Shown: positions 1,047 through 7,193 of the stretch, piece by piece
Layout of the letters: the number at the start of each line of letters is the position of its first letter
Numbering within the stretch: position 1 is the first letter of the stretch
Notes under the pieces: model-generated
The model's database searches: none
What the model saw: only the letters and a program-made list of their open reading frames with translations
What the model was told of the DNA's origin: nothing
Translations under genes and position numbers: made by a program
Source: a virus
Lineage: Duplodnaviria; Heunggongvirae; Uroviricota; Caudoviricetes
DNA: 8,493 nucleotides
Direction: 5' to 3' (one strand)
IMG/VR virus record: IMGVR_UViG_2703718808_000008
Location: 1-8,493 of that record

Positions 1047-1140
1047 GCCCGTTACGGGGCGGCGACCTCGCGGTTTTTATCTGTTTATGAAAATTTTCCG
1101 GCAAAAGTCAGATCCGTTCTTCTTCTCTGTAACAGACTGT
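1047..1140 (+). other. Lambda-type cos site (cosN with 12-nt cohesive-end sequence at 1057-1068, plus cosB-like segment)
   Basis: 1051-1073 reads GTTACG GGGCGGCGACCT CGCGG, matching the recalled lambda right-end/left-end junction; downstream TTTATGAAAATTTTCCGG and CCGTTCTTCTTC match recalled lambda cosB-proximal sequence. Confidence 0.75.
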
Positions 1141-1247: not shown

Positions 1248-1790
1248 TTACTTGCCTTTCTTCTGTAGCAACTTTTCCGGTACGTTTCCGGTTGTTTCTT
1301 TCAAGTAATCAGCCAGTATCTGTGGGAGGTTGTCGGCAACTCTGGCACTGGCATTACAGGCTTTAACCACTTCCCTTTTAAGCCTGTCCAGCATGGCGGG
1401 GGTAATCTGTGGGAAGCTCCTTTGCATAGTAAGCGGGAGGCTGTCCATGATTGATGAAATCTGACTCGCCAGCTTTGAAAGCGCGTACAGGCAAAACTCA
1501 GTATCAATCACGTCACCGCGATCGCGCTCGTTTTTAAGTTCCTGCGCCTCCGCCTGTGCTGTCAGTAATCTGATCCTGACTCGTAAGAGTTCATCATCAT
1601 CAATATCGCCTTTGTCGTTTGTAAGCTGGCTAATTGCATTGTTAACCCTATTGTCTATCACGCTGGCAACATCATAAAACGCCTCACGGCCTTTACGTTC
1701 AACGGGAGTCACTCCCCACTTGTCGAACGCTGTCGCACTTACACGGCAGCTTTTCGCCATGTTTTTTTTGTTCATCAGGTGCGATTTCAT
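1248..1790 (-). CDS. Terminase small subunit homologue, lambda Nu1-like (possibly a satellite packaging-redirection protein)
   Basis: 180-aa ORF collinear with recalled lambda Nu1: N-terminal DNA-binding region (MNKKN..., G-KG-E--YD-A-VI) and central block LTAQAEAQELKNERD...TEFCLYALSKLA...I-S-LPL--QR-FP. Start uncertain (1790 or 1775), no strong SD. Confidence 0.85.
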   Translation of the reverse strand: MKSHLMNKKNMAKSCRVSATAFDKWGVTPVERKGREAFYDVASVIDNRVNNAISQLTNDKGDIDDDELLRVRIRLLTAQAEAQELKNERDRGDVIDTEFCLYALSKLASQISSIMDSLPLTMQRSFPQITPAMLDRLKREVVKACNASARVADNLPQILADYLKETTGNVPEKLLQKKGK

Positions 1791-1968: not shown

Positions 1969-1991
1969 AAAAAAGCCGGATTTCTCCGGCC
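1968..1991 (-). terminator. Intrinsic terminator after the capsid operon
   Basis: Minus strand reads GCCGGA-GAAA-TCCGGC followed by TTTTTTT, immediately after the stop of the 1996-2409 ORF. Confidence 0.7.
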
Positions 1992-1995
1992 TGTC

Positions 1996-2409
1996 TCAGA
2001 TGGTTTTCAGTATGCGATCGATGTCGCCGTCATCGCCCGGGTTTCTGCCATCGTATGCCATGCCAGCTGATACGGCTTGCGGGCTGTGCATGTCCATAAA
2101 GTTTTCAAAGGCTGCGGTAAGCTCCGGCGCAACCTTCGGACGTTCCTGCTCTATGGTCATGCTAAGGATGCTTTTAGCCGTACCAACATCGATACAAGGC
2201 ACGTTTGCCATTGCACGTAACAGCGGCTGATAGTCGCCAGATTCATCAAGCGCCATAATCGCATCAGCGCGCGGCTTGTCCTGCTCTTCCAGTTTGTTAA
2301 GTTGATATATGGCCTCGTAGGTTGATAACCCTCTGTCAGCCATTGCCCGCGCTTCGGCTTTAAATTTACTCGCCAGCGGTAGCGTCATGATGCTTTCATT
2401 CGTTGCCAT
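1996..2409 (-). CDS. Hypothetical protein, 137 aa, last gene of the capsid operon
   Basis: SD AGGGGGAA upstream of ATG at 2409; starts 13 bp after the decoration gene stop and is followed by a terminator. No family recognised. Confidence 0.7.
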   Translation of the reverse strand: MATNESIMTLPLASKFKAEARAMADRGLSTYEAIYQLNKLEEQDKPRADAIMALDESGDYQPLLRAMANVPCIDVGTAKSILSMTIEQERPKVAPELTAAFENFMDMHSPQAVSAGMAYDGRNPGDDGDIDRILKTI

Positions 2410-2421
2410 CGTTCCCCCTGC

Positions 2422-2757
2422 TTATCGGGCCAGCGGCTGAACGGATACGCCAGACCCCGCAAAGGCAGCGCATTTTTTCGCGTCAGTGTCGGCGCTCTCA
2501 GGCCAGTTTACGGCAGCGATATTAAATATCCCCGTCTTGTAACACTGTGCTGATTTCTGCGTCGACGTGTCCACGGGGTACGAAGTCAGATAAACAGCCT
2601 TGCCAGATTCCTGACCATCCCACGGCTTAAACTCGCCATTGTCCGCCAGCATCAGCGGGGTAAATTCCTGAATAACGCCAGCATCAGCGGCAAAATGTAC
2701 CAGCGTCGTGGCGACCTGCTGACTGCCTGCGAATAACTCAATGTATGGAGTGTCCAT
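2422..2757 (-). CDS. Head decoration protein, lambda gpD-like
   Basis: 111-aa ORF sharing blocks with recalled lambda gpD (TPLML, WDG, YK-G-F, WPE, KK-AFAG); SD GGGGGA; 11-bp gap after the capsid gene stop. Confidence 0.85.
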   Translation of the reverse strand: MDTPYIELFAGSQQVATTLVHFAADAGVIQEFTPLMLADNGEFKPWDGQESGKAVYLTSYPVDTSTQKSAQCYKTGIFNIAAVNWPESADTDAKKCAAFAGSGVSVQPLAR

Positions 2758-2768
2758 AGAATCCCCCG

Positions 2769-3824
2769 TTAACCAATTTTGACGGTAACAAATTTGCGAA
2801 TATCTGCCGGTACCGGCTGCGGTGCGCTGTGTGTCTGCACGTACTCAATCGCCGGATCGCCGTCCTCAATCCAGTTTTTCGGGTAGTACATGTTTTGCGT
2901 TGCGCCCGTTCTGACCGCTTCCTGATCCATAATCGCACCATAGGCCACCAGGCCTTTATTGTTGGTGTTACCCAGGACCAGTAAATCAGGCTCAAGGAAA
3001 TATTTTTCGGTGCCGTCGCTGTCAGCGTATTTGCCGGAATAGACGATAAGGGCAATATCGCCCAGATAGCCTTTAAAGCTCACCACTTCGCCCAGGTTTT
3101 TACAGGCCAGTTCTGCGGCGGATTCTGAACCACGGGAAAGATCGTACAGCTCACGGAATTTTTTAAAGCTGCGTAACGTGCGCCATACCTCAGCGCCCAT
3201 AATCATGACGTTTGCGGGGCAACCAGCCTGATCTGCATAAAGCTCGATGTCATAGATTGGGTCGTGCATCTCTTTATCCTGCTCGGACCATTTTTTACCC
3301 TTGGCCTGCTCTATGATGCAGTTTTCCGGTATTTTCCAGTCTATTTCATAGCGTTCTATGCCTTCGCCCTCAATAATGTTTTTTCCGGTCGTTATCGCAT
3401 TCACCGCCAGCCATTCCACGCGCGCTTTAATGGCGTTTACCTGGCGGCGCATGTTGCCAGTAATCAGGCGCATACGTCGGTAGGTAGGGTCGTTAAGCTG
3501 TGCCGGATCTTCTCCAGCCATGCGCATGATGGTTTTTGTTGGATCGATTTCGTGCTTTGGCTTCATGTAGCCAGGTTTAATCGTGCTGGTTTCGTATCCT
3601 TTATCGCGCTGTACCTGGCTGCCAACCATAGGCGAACAAAACGCCGACATGGTGACTTCTTCAATGTCCAGGGTATCCAGCATGATGTTTTGGGTGCTGA
3701 ATGTCGCCACGTTCGGGAAAAACAGCGTGGTAAACAGCGGACTGAATTTAAATTCCGCAATATCCCCGCGATTCAGGTACGCAAAAAGCTGGTTAGTGTT
3801 AAGTGCCGTTGCTTTGCCTGCCAT
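2769..3824 (-). CDS. Major capsid protein, lambda gpE-like
   Basis: 351-aa ORF sharing many collinear blocks with recalled lambda gpE (FKF-PLF-LFF, PGY-KPKHE, DP-YRR-R-I-NMR, RSFK, RGS-S, VS-KG-GD-A-VYSG-Y, VLGNT, YPKNW, GDPA); SD GGGGG; start overlaps upstream stop (TAATG). Confidence 0.92.
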   Translation of the reverse strand: MAGKATALNTNQLFAYLNRGDIAEFKFSPLFTTLFFPNVATFSTQNIMLDTLDIEEVTMSAFCSPMVGSQVQRDKGYETSTIKPGYMKPKHEIDPTKTIMRMAGEDPAQLNDPTYRRMRLITGNMRRQVNAIKARVEWLAVNAITTGKNIIEGEGIERYEIDWKIPENCIIEQAKGKKWSEQDKEMHDPIYDIELYADQAGCPANVMIMGAEVWRTLRSFKKFRELYDLSRGSESAAELACKNLGEVVSFKGYLGDIALIVYSGKYADSDGTEKYFLEPDLLVLGNTNNKGLVAYGAIMDQEAVRTGATQNMYYPKNWIEDGDPAIEYVQTHSAPQPVPADIRKFVTVKIG

Positions 3825-4030
3825 TATTCACCCCCATAATTTTTATGCATCCCAAGCGCCGCAAGTAAATAAGAGCGCACAAGTGAACCTATCGACGGCT
3901 CCGGCGTCATCAGCGGATCCAGTCCAGCCGCTACGCCAGCCTCATAGTTTTTTTTGTGGCGCTGCTTGAGCACCTCCACGATTTCGGGGCTTATGTACAC
4001 GGTCACCCCGCCTTTTTTCTCTTCTGCCAT
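3824..4030 (-). CDS. Hypothetical 68-aa protein, first gene of the capsid operon
   Basis: ATG at 4028-4030 (MAEEKK...) preceded by SD AGAGGAA; the track's earlier start at 4063 lies inside the operator palindrome. Stop coupled to the capsid gene start. No family recognised. Confidence 0.6.
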   Translation of the reverse strand: MAEEKKGGVTVYISPEIVEVLKQRHKKNYEAGVAAGLDPLMTPEPSIGSLVRSYLLAALGMHKNYGGE

Positions 4031-4060
4031 AGTCAGAAATTCCTCTTTGACTAAAAAAAT

Positions 4061-4114
4061 CATAACTGGATGTTCATCCAGTTATGATTATAATCATGAT
4101 TGCATTTTGTGCAA
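4061..4114 (-). promoter_or_regulatory. Putative sigma70-type promoter of the capsid operon with overlapping operator palindrome
   Basis: Minus-strand -35 TTGCAC (plus coords 4109-4114), 16-nt spacer, -10 TATAAT (4087-4092); perfect 12-2-12 inverted repeat CATAACTGGATG-TT-CATCCAGTTATG at 4061-4086 around the predicted start, and 14-bp palindrome ATGATTATAATCAT at 4085-4098. Confidence 0.4.
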
Positions 4115-4192
4115 TGATGTTGAGTTGTGTTGCAAATTATGAAATTATTATCCCGATCATGTGTGTCAGTGCACCAAAAAAACCTCATATGC

Positions 4193-4234
4193 AAAAGCCC
4201 GATAAGTTTCCTCTGACCTTATCGGGCTTTTTTA
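4193..4234 (+). terminator. Intrinsic terminator, likely bidirectional
   Basis: GCCCGATAAG (4197-4206) / CTTATCGGGC (4218-4227) stem flanked by AAAA upstream and TTTTTT downstream. Confidence 0.6.
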
Positions 4235-4408
4235 TCTGCCTGCAAAGATGTCGAACAAAAATTAACCACAACCATCATCTTTTTTGCATCAAAACAATTA
4301 AAAACAATAAATTACGCTCATGATGATGATGACGATAAAATCACAAAAATGCGCTTTTTTCCGCGCCGACCCGCCTCGTGGACAGGCCCCCCCGCCAGGA
4401 GTACCTAC

Positions 4409-4431
4409 AAAAAAGCCGGATTTTCTCCGGC
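4409..4431 (-). terminator. Intrinsic terminator after the SSB-like gene
   Basis: Minus strand reads GCCGGA-GAAAA-TCCGGC then TTTTTT, 8 bp after the SSB-like stop; near-identical to the terminator at 1968-1991. Confidence 0.7.
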
Positions 4432-4439
4432 CATGATGT

Positions 4440-4850
4440 TCAGAAAGGAATATTGTCACCGTAGGGGTCATCGCCTCCAGCTGGTGGCTGATTACCCTGT
4501 GTGCCTGTGGTTTTGCGTCTGTTCCCGCCAGGACGTGCCGCACGGGCACTGATTACGCTGTCTGCAATAACCTGATAACCCTGCCGCGTTTCCCCGTTCT
4601 GTCCGGTCCACTGGCTTATCTGCATCACGCCAGATATGCTGGCAACGTCGCCTTTTTGATGTTTAGCCAGGAAGTCGGCCTGCTTACCAAATGCCATCAC
4701 CGATAGCCATAACGTAGCCGTTCCGTCATCTGCCTGGCTGCACGGAAGGGGGACCGCCATACGCGCCAGCGTCATCGGTGTGCCCTTGCTGGTCTGTTTT
4801 ACCTGCGGGTCGTCCACCAGCCGCCCGTAAGCGGCTATCTGTGCTGTCAT
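4440..4850 (-). CDS. ssb: Single-stranded DNA-binding protein homologue
   Basis: 136-aa ORF with OB-fold-like blocks resembling recalled E. coli SSB (GRL-DDP-V, W--V--FGK, W-G), Gly/Pro-rich linker and C-terminal ...DNIPF resembling the SSB tip DDDIPF; SD GGAGAGGTGG; start overlaps upstream stop (ATGA). Confidence 0.75.
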   Translation of the reverse strand: MTAQIAAYGRLVDDPQVKQTSKGTPMTLARMAVPLPCSQADDGTATLWLSVMAFGKQADFLAKHQKGDVASISGVMQISQWTGQNGETRQGYQVIADSVISARAARPGGNRRKTTGTQGNQPPAGGDDPYGDNIPF

Positions 4851-5444: not shown

Positions 5445-7193
5445 TTATAAAAACGCGTCGCAATCGTCTGTTGTAATTGCGTTGGTCTGCGTTACTCCCT
5501 TAACTTTTCGCGTAATATATTCATGCCCGTAAACTTTCGCCGCTGGCTTCATGGCCTTGCTGAACTCAGCCACGTTTAGCGGTTTGCTCCTGCCTGCGTA
5601 TGCCATAAACGCCAGATAGACGCGGTAAAGGCTGTTCCTGGTCGTGTACTTCACTGAATCACCACCGCCACCCATCATCAGGCCGCGCGCTTCCTCCAGA
5701 AAATTCAGGAACTGGCAAAACTCAATAACCGGATCCGTCTGTTGCTTTATCGCCAGTGCTTCATCTCCGTCACGCTGTTCCAGTAGTAAAGCCCGTGCCT
5801 TCTCAGGGTCGGTAAAGTTCGCCAGCAAGCGGCGGATAATAACGGGGATTTCAGCCGCGATCTTTTCCGGTAGTTCCCTGTCTTTTTCGGCCTCACTGAC
5901 GATATTGTCGAAACGGAAAATCACGCGACGACGTGCCACACCTCCGGCCCGTTCGGTGAATATCATCGGGTTATTGTTGGTCGCCAGCACCACCGCCCTG
6001 ATTACCGCCGTGAAACGCTTTTCATATTTCGGGTTTATTTCCACGGGGTCGCCGCCCGTGATTTTCTTGATGCCCGTTCCTTCGCCTGTATATTTCGGCT
6101 GGTCTGCCAGGACGATAAGACGACTCCCGACAACCTGCGCACGTCCACCAGCATCATCAAGCGATGTCATTTCAGCGCTTACCGTGTTCTGTTTCCCTGC
6201 CAGAAGGCTGGCTATGTGCGTGAATGTACTTTTACCGCTCCCGCCATCTCCTGTGGCCTCAATAAACATCTGCCAGTCGTACCGGTTCGCCATAATCATG
6301 TACAGCGCGGCACATATACGCATCATCTTGTGCGGGTCTTTTCCGGCTGCGTGCTCAAGCCATTTATGAAAGTTTGGCGCGTTGTCGCAAATGTTCTCCC
6401 CTGGTGCTGGTGGCGTGTACTCAATGCCGTTGTGCGTGGTGATCCAGTTCTCCGGCGTGTGCGGGGAAAATTCCCCCGTTTTCAGGTCAAGTGCACCATT
6501 GGCGAACGGCAACAAATCGCCGGACGGCTCGCCCATTGGTTCGGCAATAACTTTTAACGCTTCCACGGCGTTATTGATTACGCGTTTGCTGAAAGTGGCC
6601 CTGTGCTCTGAATAGATCGCCACCATTTCGCGGCTCAGCTCCATTGTGCTGACCGGACACCATACCCCGCCGCGCCATACGTGAACGATTTCACTTTCCG
6701 GATGCACACAAACGCCATCAAAGCGCTCGGCAAGCAGCTGCGCGCGCTCACTGTCTGCCATTTGTGCCAGTTGCGTATTTTTCTGCTCCGGCATGGTAAG
6801 CCCTGCGGCAATATTTTCACGCTCAGCATTCAGATAGCGCCGCCAGTTTTCACACTTCTGGACGTGCATTCCTTCGTGGTAAAAATTTGCGTCCTGAATA
6901 TCTGCCGCCGCCAGCTTCTGACCAATCTTTTTGGTCTCCACTAAATCCAGTTCTCCGGCCTGGTACAGCCTTACGCGCTTTTTCCCATCCGGAACAATTT
7001 TCAGCGCATCAAGTTCGGCAAGCTGATTTGGCCCAAGCCACACAGGCGGCACATTATCGCCGGATGCGGGGCCATCCTGCTCCTGCCATTGTTTCGCGTG
7101 CGACCAGGCATCACTACCCGCAAAGATAATTACCTCTGTGTCTTTGTGTTTTATTCCGCGTGGCTGTTTTTTTACGTTCGGTGCCAGTTTCAT
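5445..7193 (-). CDS. Primase/helicase, P4 alpha (D5-like) family
   Basis: 582-aa ORF with Walker A GDGGSGKST and the size and layout of P4-family primase-helicase proteins; SD AGGGGT; start overlaps upstream ORF stop (ATGA). Confidence 0.9.
   Translation of the reverse strand: MKLAPNVKKQPRGIKHKDTEVIIFAGSDAWSHAKQWQEQDGPASGDNVPPVWLGPNQLAELDALKIVPDGKKRVRLYQAGELDLVETKKIGQKLAAADIQDANFYHEGMHVQKCENWRRYLNAERENIAAGLTMPEQKNTQLAQMADSERAQLLAERFDGVCVHPESEIVHVWRGGVWCPVSTMELSREMVAIYSEHRATFSKRVINNAVEALKVIAEPMGEPSGDLLPFANGALDLKTGEFSPHTPENWITTHNGIEYTPPAPGENICDNAPNFHKWLEHAAGKDPHKMMRICAALYMIMANRYDWQMFIEATGDGGSGKSTFTHIASLLAGKQNTVSAEMTSLDDAGGRAQVVGSRLIVLADQPKYTGEGTGIKKITGGDPVEINPKYEKRFTAVIRAVVLATNNNPMIFTERAGGVARRRVIFRFDNIVSEAEKDRELPEKIAAEIPVIIRRLLANFTDPEKARALLLEQRDGDEALAIKQQTDPVIEFCQFLNFLEEARGLMMGGGGDSVKYTTRNSLYRVYLAFMAYAGRSKPLNVAEFSKAMKPAAKVYGHEYITRKVKGVTQTNAITTDDCDAFL

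Follow-up and report, generated by a model that had tools for sequence, protein, structure and literature searches.

What controls the capsid-like genes of a phage satellite, and what part does the long palindrome at their promoter play in that control? The window in which this question arises (the whole stretch of DNA analysed, 8,493 nt) is an E. coli phage-inducible chromosomal island (PICI) of the EcCICFT073 type. It is 98% identical to an 11-kb island that is integrated in tqsA and encodes an integrase together with an AlpA-like HTH protein, the gene order along the window is that of EcCICFT073, and the layout is the one that characterises the type (int-alpA-...-primase-...-capsid homologue-...-cos, unidirectional, about 10-12 kb), with cosN at 1057 within the window. 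The location in tqsA, seen in the genome closest to the window, is a difference from EcCICFT073, as are the absence of the upstream PerC-family gene from the window's island and the presence there of a 180-aa Nu1-like gene, where EcCICFT073 has a 144-aa gene at the rppA (c1503) position. The capsid-like module shares its gene order with c1498-c1501 of EcCICFT073, its 68-aa first gene corresponds to c1498, and the palindrome and promoter are identical in the two islands (L087:10349-10440 in EcCICFT073). CFT073, Nissle 1917 and O157:H7 are among the strains with such an island. Of the phage late genes in Gram-negative PICIs, homologues of capsid genes are the most frequent, with 21 of 29 reference islands carrying them (bioRxiv 10.1101/2022.07.18.500453). 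The c1498-c1501 genes were described by Fillol-Salom et al. 2018 (PMC6092414) and have been named the 'adaptable module' (PMC10530653); c1499 and c1500 gave no phenotype, c1498-c1501 has been treated as replaceable, and deleting or replacing it leaves transfer by lambda or phi80 unaffected (PMC6092414, PMC10530653).

The capsid-like unit and its limits

In the direction of transcription, the unit and its flanks read as follows.

4414 to 4432, minus strand: terminator-like hairpin just after the SSB gene (scan)
4186 to 4238, minus strand: upstream hairpin GCCCGATAAG...CTTATCGGGC, then TTTT (repeat search; conserved in the family)
3824 to 4030, minus strand: 68-aa first gene, ATG to TAA, homologue of EcCICFT073 c1498 (phrog_3255)
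2769 to 3824, minus strand: major capsid protein homologue, lambda gpE family (Pfam PF03864, E 4.6e-51; c1499 in EcCICFT073, PMC6092414)
2422 to 2757, minus strand: head decoration protein homologue, lambda gpD family (Pfam PF02924, E 1.8e-17)
1996 to 2409, minus strand: 137-aa last gene of the unit (phrog_1999, E 7.8e-65)
1973 to 1992, minus strand: G+C-rich terminator-like hairpin and T-run, 4 nt past the stop of the 137-aa gene, at the 3' end of the unit

The four genes form a unit that runs from about 4114 to 1970, with terminator-like hairpins on either side. The hairpin at 4186-4238 went uncalled by the terminator scan because its loop is 11 nt long; together with the site at 4432-4414, it would insulate the capsid unit from the replication operon. 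Within the unit, the 68-aa gene ends in TAATG, its stop codon sharing bases with the start codon of the major capsid gene, which is translationally coupled to it. The 137-aa product matches positions 494-567 of 583 in phrog_53 (E 1.3e-8), a stretch near the C-terminus of this head maturation protease/scaffold family, and it is this product, rather than the 68-aa one, that we put forward as the candidate scaffold-like protein of the operon.

A palindrome around a predicted LexA box

The promoter region carries several overlapping elements.

4130 to 4144, no strand: dyad 2, TTTCA-N5-TGCAA, one mismatch, 30 bp upstream of dyad 1 (family conservation)
4100 to 4114, no strand: dyad 1, TTGCA-N5-TGCAA, overlapping the -35 and the spacer (family conservation)
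4109 to 4114, minus strand: -35 hexamer TTGCAC, 3/6 (TTG), with a 16-nt spacer to the -10 (read from the sequence)
4087 to 4092, minus strand: -10 hexamer TATAAT, 6/6, identity 0.993 in 67 unique family sequences (read from the sequence)
4058 to 4089, no strand: perfect 15-2-15 palindrome AATCATAACTGGATG-AA-CATCCAGTTATGATT (repeat search, shuffles)
4064 to 4083 (written 4083-4064), no strand: predicted LexA box, the 20-mer AACTGGATGAACATCCAGTT, with its CTG-N10-CAG core at 4066-4081 (heterology index, conservation)
4053 to 4059, minus strand: run of seven T, overlapping the hairpin's 3' arm and extending past it, terminator-like together with that hairpin

The original prediction had described a perfect 12-2-12 palindrome at the transcription start of a near-consensus promoter, and had taken it for the operator of a dimeric regulator that might link capsid-gene expression to helper induction. 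The palindrome exists and is perfect, and its size had been under-counted: the repeat search found arms of 15 nt each (4058-4072 and 4075-4089) that are 100% complementary and stand 2 nt apart, making it 15-2-15, or 32 bp. It is the longest perfect inverted repeat in the window (loop <=10), and its arms are far beyond chance, the longest arms in 100 mononucleotide shuffles and 100 random sequences of the local 40% GC composition being 6-11 nt. The palindrome begins inside the -10 hexamer, whose last three bases are its own first three, and it spans the predicted start site at about 4080. The description of the predicted sigma-70 promoter as near-consensus fits in part, with a perfect -10 and a weak -35, and because the -35 matches at just three of six bases the consensus scan made no call at 4114-4087. 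Across the 67 unique family sequences both hexamers are almost invariant, and the TTGCA of the -35 is wholly so. A sigma-54 promoter was also considered by eye, in TTGCAC-N4-TGCA, and was rejected for having TG in place of GG and the wrong spacing.

The centre of the palindrome resembles an SOS box. We scored it by heterology index (HI), using a matrix derived from 18 SOS boxes of E. coli (PMC3009722 Table 4) in unsymmetrised and symmetrised versions. The HI of the window box is 6.98-7.43, inside the leave-one-out range of the 18 validated E. coli operators (0.6-12.6 with the unsymmetrised matrix or 2.0-17.0 with the symmetrised one) and mid-range among them, near recA (6.6-7.1), cho (about 8) and ruvA (about 8.6); 8 of those 18 boxes have a poorer score than the window box when the symmetrised matrix is used. 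Such a site is rarer than chance would have it: it is the best-scoring site in the window (the runner-up has an HI of 12.8-13.6), none of 200 shuffled windows reached its score, and in 73 kb of related genome (24 kb of L001 and 49 kb of L087) the window-type box is the only 20-mer with an HI <=7.5.

The gammaproteobacterial SOS-box consensus is TACTG(TA)5CAGTA (PMC6590174), and the window box has the 16-bp CTG-N10-CAG core inside a 20-bp imperfect palindrome by which SOS boxes are defined. The E. coli LexA operators of ruvAB (CGCTGGATATCTATCCAGCA), cho (CACTGGATAGATAACCAGCA) and recA (TACTGTATGAGCATACAGTA) have in common with it this core, an A/T-rich centre and overlap with a promoter. Where the consensus has T and A adjoining CTG and CAG, the window box has G and C, a feature common to weaker boxes such as ruvA and cho, whose CTGG...CCAG variant is identical in the window. 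Unlike these operators, which serve chromosomal repair genes, the predicted box sits on a mobile phage satellite and is embedded in a 32-bp perfect palindrome followed by a T-run. It is placed 3 nt downstream of the conserved TATAAT, roughly between -3 and +17 on the predicted promoter; in Salmonella, LexA-dependent SOS genes with bistable expression have LexA boxes that overlap the start site (PMC8072944).

The box is also conserved across orthologous loci. It is kept by 85 of 87 E. coli loci, with HI values of 6.1-10.2, and by Salmonella islands (GACTGGATGAAAATCCAGTA, HI 7.45) whose small protein is just 56-57% identical. Wherever it is kept, CTG and CAG are invariant and the centre varies, and in the 67 unique family sequences the entropy is lower for the LexA core (0.17) than for the outer arms of the palindrome (0.45 and 0.28). 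The palindrome, perfect in the window, carries two left-arm substitutions in SSGNw2 (L002). The box is absent from two divergent relatives, ETEC1732 (L005) and Edwardsiella (L088), where the promoter and the dyads are kept, so LexA control would not be universal in the family.

The expectation of an operator for a dimeric regulator is supported by these results: the core of the palindrome is a mid-strength, conserved SOS box on the predicted promoter, and the likely regulator is the host LexA repressor, whose binding we predict. Because a good and conserved LexA-box match lies on the promoter of the capsid module, the SOS response probably turns the module on directly. We think it probable, by a fair way short of certainty, that the 32-bp palindrome is built around a LexA operator and that the four-gene unit is LexA-repressed and SOS-inducible. 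In an undamaged cell, a LexA dimer on 4083-4064, covering the predicted start, would block initiation of the unit; upon DNA damage, RecA-stimulated self-cleavage of LexA would derepress it, independently of the island's AlpA activator. The signal for derepression would be the same one that induces lambdoid helper prophages. Of the suggested link to helper induction this would preserve a shared DNA-damage signal, but the link would be only indirect, running through the host rather than through a helper-encoded cue. The searchable literature yielded no data on LexA binding or DNA-damage induction at the box, and no published account of SOS (LexA) control of the capsid module was found in the literature searched.

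Other readings of the palindrome

The palindrome can also be read as RNA. The terminator scan calls a terminator-like site at 4089-4058 (14 pairs, four of them G-C, a 4-nt loop, then the T-run), the palindrome RNA folds at -17.7 to -20.6 kcal/mol (z -5.5 for the -20.6 fold), and variation within the family points to pairing: changes on both sides of the stem account for six cells, a count reached in 0/500 shuffles, with compensatory changes at three stem pairs (C-G to U-A; U-A to G-C and C-G; A-U to G-C), and ten cells hold G-U wobbles, pairs that form on the sense strand only. A T-run of 5-7 is retained in every variant, and the Salmonella sequence keeps the hairpin at -15.3 kcal/mol. It is therefore conceivable that the palindrome is mainly an RNA element, a third intrinsic terminator or attenuator directed against read-through from the AlpA-driven replication operon or against transcripts from an upstream promoter (TTGCAA-16-CAAAAT is an alternative candidate), and that the LexA-box match is incidental. 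We consider this unlikely. A hairpin directly followed by 5-7 U is what the palindrome has in common with Rho-independent terminators, but its stem is long and A+T-rich with just four G-C pairs, it overlaps the -10 and the predicted start, and it stands downstream of two canonical, stronger G+C-rich terminators. Transcription starting about 7 nt past TATAAT would yield a transcript that has little of the 5' arm. Conservation is lower in the outer arms than in the LexA core, one stem pair is a G-A mismatch in 9 of 21 unique variants, pairing in the outer or inner stem is disrupted in others, and a C-to-A variant (CATACAG) weakens the hairpin yet lowers the HI to 6.42. Template-switch 'quasipalindrome' mutation can yield compensatory changes in DNA palindromes without selection, and those seen here, including a double change in L007, could have arisen in this way. 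We also estimate that CTG would fall at the offset giving N10 in about 1 in 64 random palindromes. The relatives that lack the box, L005 and L088, are also without a stable hairpin on folding, so these two relatives do not help to choose between the LexA and hairpin readings. An Rfam scan of the window gave no family at threshold; weak matches to the GcvB and Spy sRNAs, on the opposite strand at 4053-4235, fell far short of the gathering scores.

LexA contacts about 20 bp, and neither the extra length of the 32-bp palindrome nor the compensatory changes in its outer arms are explained by LexA. One might suppose that the palindrome is instead the operator of another dimeric regulator, encoded by the island or a helper (the 68-aa RHH-like product, AlpA, a PerC-family protein or a phage repressor), and the resemblance of the first gene to small RHH DNA-binding proteins would fit, as RHH autorepressors encoded by the first gene of an operon, Arc and CopG among them, are common. 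This too we hold to be improbable. Outer-arm positions swap freely among T-A, C-G and G-C across the family, which would be unexpected for base-specific protein contacts, and L005 and L088 have lost the palindrome entirely while retaining the small protein, in which the strand residues are invariant, and the TTGCA-N5-TGCAA dyads. The window and SSGNw2 keep the palindrome without a PerC gene, and by eye there is no resemblance to lambdoid operators. Still less probable, to the point that we give it very little weight, is that the palindrome has no regulatory role and is a quasi-palindrome, owed to chance or kept up by mutation, within an A+T-rich leader. The module might be under weak selection, given that c1498-c1501 is dispensable for lambda/phi80 transfer (PMC6092414, PMC10530653), but against this stand arms of 15 nt versus a maximum of 11 in the 200 random controls, conservation of the element from E. 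coli to Salmonella with CTG/CAG invariant, and coding-type constraint on the downstream genes. Two further roles were considered and rejected. A Fur box at 4083-4101 agrees with the 19-bp Fur consensus at 14/19 positions, and was dismissed because agreement just as good is found at other places in the window and in 19% of shuffles. For a cos or ori site the surroundings are wrong, with cosN at 1057 and the replication genes upstream of the terminators.

The first gene, the dyads and a proposed SaPI parallel

The 68-aa ORF is preceded by an AAGAGGA Shine-Dalgarno 10-11 nt upstream, and RefSeq annotates the identical product in near-identical islands. Its entropy at codon positions 1/2/3 is 0.30/0.21/0.56; with third positions the most variable, we take it to be a real gene under purifying selection. 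A 79-aa extension from an ATG at 4063, the start used in a few database entries (P0003, P0009, P0010), was rejected, as it begins inside the palindrome without a Shine-Dalgarno, RefSeq has the 68-aa product in all five E. coli genomes inspected, and the N-terminal extension is unconserved in Salmonella and Edwardsiella. Relatives of the protein were obtained from an IMG/VR scan. Searches of Pfam, NCBIfam, PDB sequences and Foldseek/PDB gave no significant family, tblastn gave no match in 50,697 phage genomes, a profile search of 1.84 billion representative proteins returned just 18 matches, mostly fragments, and a genome-collection scan for relatives returned a single spurious Acidimicrobiales locus. 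By these searches the family is an orphan, satellite-specific and restricted to enterobacterial islands. An apparent link to PerC did not survive alignment: P0025, which has a PerC domain, is a chimera of a PerC N-terminus fused to the C-terminus of the 68-aa family.

The small protein had been proposed as a scaffold, size-determination or regulatory factor. Several hints of an RHH fold, weak and sub-threshold and all in one direction, favour the regulatory option and make a scaffold or size role less likely, and we tentatively regard the product as a ribbon-helix-helix DNA-binding protein. P22 Arc, pMV158 CopG and the N-terminal domain of TraM are small and made of an N-terminal strand and then two helices, as predicted for the 68-aa product, and like the first-gene RHH autoregulators it is encoded by the first gene of an operon, under a promoter that carries conserved dyads. 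It differs from RHH proteins in a long inter-helix loop and in putative DNA-facing residues that are Thr, Tyr and Ser, not Arg, Lys or Asn, and no Pfam or NCBIfam model matches it at threshold.

Dyad 2 is the most conserved non-coding block (entropy 0.038, 12 of 15 columns invariant), and the dyads are better conserved than the palindrome. They are retained in L005 and L088, islands without the LexA box, and in L088 both copies are perfect matches, 32 bp apart. Since these two islands keep the small protein and the dyads and have lost the palindrome, the dyads are the better candidate site for an island-specific factor, and dyad 1 is a candidate operator for such a second regulator. We speculate that the 68-aa product feeds back on the promoter via the two conserved TTGCA-N5-TGCAA dyads overlapping the -35. 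A more elaborate version of this model, which we find possible if rather doubtful, is that the palindrome has a dual use, as a LexA operator in DNA and a terminator or 5' stem-loop in RNA, which together with RHH feedback via the TTGCA dyads would make an SOS-triggered, self-limiting capsid/decoration/scaffold unit that is AlpA- and helper-independent and convergent with SaPI operon I. The 'phenotype-less' capsid genes might then act only under DNA damage or with helpers beyond lambda and phi80, for example to build or poison capsids.

If the predicted LexA box works as we propose, the capsid module would have been silent in the assays used so far unless SOS was on, its control being separate from AlpA, and SOS would be the condition under which experimenters should look for its function. 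A direct host-SOS input would be added to the Gram-negative PICI model, which currently assumes helper-only induction, and in islands engineered as delivery vehicles, the native promoter would put any cargo inserted at c1498-c1501 under SOS regulation. It would also reveal convergence with the staphylococcal SaPIs, in which operon I, for packaging and morphogenesis, is repressed by LexA (Ubeda et al. 2007, as cited in PMC6092414). Our best reading is an insulated, LexA-repressed and SOS-inducible unit analogous to SaPI operon I. The S. aureus operon is a satellite's capsid/packaging operon wired to the host SOS repressor, as we propose for the window's unit, and in both the LexA input would be separate from the master regulator, Stl in SaPI and AlpA in the window's island. 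The window differs in having a Gram-negative host with a different LexA box consensus, and in that the helpers tested can transfer the island without the E. coli module, whose SOS control is predicted from sequence. The gene content is likewise unrelated, the E. coli module holding gpE, gpD and Nu3-like homologues and the SaPI operon cpmA/B, ptiA and terS.

A predicted LexA box at the module promoter

An inverted-repeat search of the window finds a perfect 15-2-15 palindrome, AATCATAACTGGATG-AA-CATCCAGTTATGATT, at 4058-4089, longer than the 12-2-12 repeat of the original prediction; palindrome arms in random controls never exceeded 11, and the same 32 bp are present, identical, in EcCICFT073. 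The predicted promoter elements are:

4114-4109, minus strand, -35 hexamer TTGCAC, 16-nt spacer to the -10
4092-4087, minus strand, -10 hexamer TATAAT, upstream of and overlapping the palindrome

The final three bases of the -10 also open the palindrome, so the predicted start (~4080) lies in the palindrome's 5' arm. The description of this promoter as near-consensus does not hold at the -35, where the match is limited to TTG, and a consensus promoter scanner called no promoter at the module start. Both hexamers are almost invariant among 67 unique family sequences. Four copies of the motif AATCAT/ATGATT lie around the -10.

The palindrome centre, CTGGATGAACATCCAG (4083-4064), has the form CTG-N10-CAG, as does the core of the gammaproteobacterial LexA box (consensus TACTG(TA)5CAGTA; PMC6590174). 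Using a count matrix derived from 18 E. coli SOS boxes (PMC3009722, Table 4), we computed the Berg-von Hippel/Lewis heterology index (HI; lower is closer to consensus). The 20-mer scores 6.98-7.43. In a leave-one-out test the real boxes fall between 0.6 and 12.6 with the unsymmetrised matrix and between 2.0 and 17.0 with the symmetrised one, and recA scores 6.6-7.1, cho ~8 and ruvA ~8.6; the ruvA and cho boxes share with the window box a CTGG...CCAG variant. The second-best 20-mer in the window has an HI of 12.8-13.6, and in 200 shuffles of the window no site scored as well as the observed one. The module-promoter box is the only 20-mer with HI <=7.5 both in 24 kb around a related island (L001) and in 49 kb of CFT073 (L087). 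It begins 3 nt past the -10, at roughly -3 to +17 of the predicted start. In Salmonella, SOS genes that depend on LexA and are expressed bistably have LexA boxes overlapping the start site (PMC8072944). Every sequence-level property of a LexA operator that could be tested was found here, and we consider it probable that the palindrome core functions as a LexA operator, at a promoter that the SOS response induces.

Weaker LexA-box-like 20-mers lie outside the window, upstream of alpA and between int and alpA: TACTGTTTTTTTATACACTG (L087 4289-4308, HI 8.85) and TAATGTATAAAAAACCAGCT (L001 17448-17467, HI 10.2). In published reporter assays, induction of alpA did not depend on SOS (PMC6092414).

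Conservation of the box and the hairpin alternative

Scanning IMG/VR with the small protein gave 80 loci, and E. coli genome hits brought the set to 87, with 52 unique upstream sequences. In 85 of the 87 the box is kept, at HI 6.1-10.2; one locus (L049) has a 1-nt insertion in the box centre, and the divergent ETEC1732 island (L005) has a deletion. Salmonella islands retain a box, GACTGGATGAAAATCCAGTA (HI 7.45), though their small protein is 56-57% identical, and an Edwardsiella island has no LexA box. The CTG and CAG are invariant, with substitutions confined to the degenerate centre. The original interpretation as a whole is partly supported and sharpened; its operator for a dimeric regulator is supported, with a good, conserved predicted LexA box at the core.

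It is also possible that the palindrome acts as a terminator or other RNA element. Together with seven T it is terminator-like in a terminator scan, and its hairpin folds at -20.6 kcal/mol (z -5.5). Among 21 unique gap-free variants, three outer-stem pairs have changed on both sides (C-G to U-A; U-A to G-C and C-G; A-U to G-C), amounting to six cells, a number reached in none of 500 shuffles; a further ten cells hold G-U wobbles, which pair on the sense strand only. These changes are genuine evidence for the importance of outer-arm pairing. Against that, the variants are closely related sequences, one pair is a G-A mismatch in 9 of the 21, a transcript beginning ~7 nt past TATAAT would miss most of the 5' arm, and template-switch "quasipalindrome" mutation, which perfects imperfect DNA palindromes with no need for selection, could account for such changes. 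Column entropy is 0.17 in the 16-bp core vs 0.45 and 0.28 in the outer arms, and the recurrent CATCCAG-to-CATACAG change weakens the hairpin from -17.7 to -12.2 kcal/mol and brings the box closer to consensus (HI 6.42). Variation of this kind is more easily reconciled with a LexA site than with a 15-bp stem, and we regard an RNA function as secondary and possibly additional. Folding finds no stable hairpin in the two relatives without a LexA box either, so they do not separate these readings.

The capsid cassette and its first gene

Over 94% of its length, the window shares 98% identity with an 11-kb island that several E. coli genomes carry in tqsA and whose gene order is integrase, AlpA-like HTH, Icd-like, DUF4222, primase, SSB, 68-aa, capsid, decoration, 137-aa, Nu1-like. 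The relevant features are:

5445-7193, minus strand, D5-type primase gene (family assignment)
4440-4850, SSB gene
4432-4414, minus strand, terminator-like hairpin directly after the SSB gene (terminator scan)
4238-4186, minus strand, conserved upstream hairpin GCCCGATAAG...CTTATCGGGC then TTTT (inverted-repeat search)
4144-4130, dyad TTTCA-N5-TGCAA, 30 bp from the first dyad
4114-4100, first dyad, TTGCA-N5-TGCAA, overlapping the -35 and spacer
4030-3824, minus strand, 68-aa hypothetical gene (RefSeq-annotated)
2769-3824, minus strand, lambda gpE-family major capsid gene (family assignment)
2422-2757, minus strand, gpD-family decoration gene (family assignment)
1996-2409, minus strand, 137-aa gene (family assignment)
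1992-1973, minus strand, G+C-rich terminator-like hairpin four nt past the 137-aa gene
1248-1790, minus strand, Nu1-like (Nu1-family, TerS-like) 180-aa gene (family assignment)

EcCICFT073, the model Gram-negative phage-inducible chromosomal island (PICI), lies at L087:2931-13700 of the CFT073 genome, and its gene order matches this one. Its capsid gene is c1499 and its decoration gene c1500 (PMC6092414), which makes the 68-aa gene the c1498 homologue; no phenotype was detected for c1499 or c1500 (PMC6092414). In EcCICFT073, c1498-c1501 have been swapped for cargo with transfer retained (PMC10530653, PMC10460865). The 68-aa stop overlaps the capsid ATG. The flanking terminator-like hairpins delimit a four-gene cassette (68-aa, capsid, decoration, 137-aa), which they should insulate from both the AlpA-driven replication operon and the downstream Nu1-like gene; its extent coincides with the c1498-c1501 "adaptable module".

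The 68-aa ORF has an AAGAGGA Shine-Dalgarno, a RefSeq annotation and a coding pattern of variation, and it lies directly upstream of the capsid gene in every locus whose context was examined. Its family is a tiny orphan, with 27 matches among 5.8 billion sequences in a word-indexed search and 18 among 1.84 billion representatives in a full HMM search, all informative ones from E. coli, Salmonella or Edwardsiella. There was no match in 50,697 phage genomes, so this is not a standard phage head gene. In the AF2 model (pLDDT 76) the N-terminus is extended and leads into helices at residues 15-34 and 47-58. The sole DNA-binding families among sub-threshold Pfam matches are ribbon-helix-helix (RHH; BrnA 0.017, RHH_1 0.15), and hhalign against a small hand-typed classical RHH set places GVTVYISPEIVEVLK on the strand-helix in the right register (P 0.003, probability 10%); Foldseek of the model against PDB gave no match. 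From these weak but agreeing signals, none significant alone, we judge the chances of an RHH fold to be about even. If the fold is indeed RHH, the gene more probably encodes a regulator than a scaffold, and of the roles originally suggested for it (scaffold, size determination, regulation) the regulatory one is favoured. The scaffold-like candidate is instead the product of the 137-aa gene. Its match to phrog_53, a head maturation protease/scaffold family, covers the C-terminal segment of that family (494-567 of 583; E 1.3e-8), a Nu3-like scaffold position, and this product may be the real candidate for scaffold or size determination. The gene's annotation differs by genome, "head-tail connector" in some and "hypothetical" in others.

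The best-conserved non-coding blocks of the family are the two dyads, not the palindrome. None was found elsewhere in the islands, each of which carries them here only, and they are retained in both lineages without the LexA box; the Edwardsiella copies are both perfect, 32 bp apart. They are a candidate operator of an island-specific regulator, perhaps of the 68-aa product if it is RHH; Arc and CopG act on their own promoters. On the plus strand, a direct repeat (AATCATGATTGCATTTT, 4092-4108, and AATCATAACTGGATGTT, 4058-4074; 76% identical, 34 nt apart) connects a half-site of the first dyad with a LexA half-site.

Many E. coli genomes contain, alone and unannotated, the non-coding block that separates the second hairpin from the SSB terminator (4244-4419), at 85-88% identity (hits H32-H39), and EcCICFT073 and other islands have a PerC-family regulator gene at its position. 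One E. coli protein matching the 68-aa family (P0025, 79 aa) is a natural chimera of a PerC-family N-terminus and the C-terminal 26 residues of the family, presumably formed by a deletion joining adjacent perC and c1498-like genes. The Nu1-family gene occupies the place of a 144-aa ORF in EcCICFT073 (L087:12660-13094), which from gene order we infer to be rppA (c1503), and its 180-aa product could be either a variant Rpp or a true small terminase. Downstream of it is an exact lambda cosN, GGGCGGCGACCT, at 1057-1068 (plus strand), presumably the island's cos site; EcCICFT073 has two cosN copies, at L087:12559 (plus strand) and 13309 (minus strand).

A proposed SOS input and its precedents

We propose that in undamaged cells LexA on the box would block initiation at the module promoter, and that after DNA damage RecA-stimulated LexA cleavage would derepress the cassette, with possible feedback on the dyads from its first product. 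Derepression would be concurrent with induction of a lambdoid helper prophage, yet via a host signal and independent of AlpA. The suggested link between capsid-gene expression and helper induction would be only indirect, with the cue coming from the host.

The closest system-level precedent for a LexA-controlled satellite module comes from the staphylococcal islands, whose packaging operon, SaPI operon I, is reportedly under LexA control (Ubeda et al. 2007, cited in PMC6092414); a LexA box on the capsid module suggests convergence between Gram-negative PICIs and SaPIs. In key Gram-negative PICI papers LexA appears in reference lists only, a full-text literature search found no paper on LexA control of these islands by title or abstract, and a preprint on helper-embedded satellites assigns SOS sensing to the helper's CI repressor (bioRxiv 10.1101/2022.07.18.500453). 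Direct LexA input into the capsid module appears to be unreported within the searchable literature. Although a LexA box is an ordinary type of element, here it gives a widespread satellite module of so far no known function an explanation that can be tested.

In Edwardsiella tarda (L088 5001-10213), a short Phage_portal_2-family ORF (257 aa), which may be truncated, comes directly after the small-gene/capsid/decoration module; beyond it lie the protease, decoration and capsid genes of a lambda-like prophage, an arrangement that resembles the "helper-embedded satellite" of that preprint.
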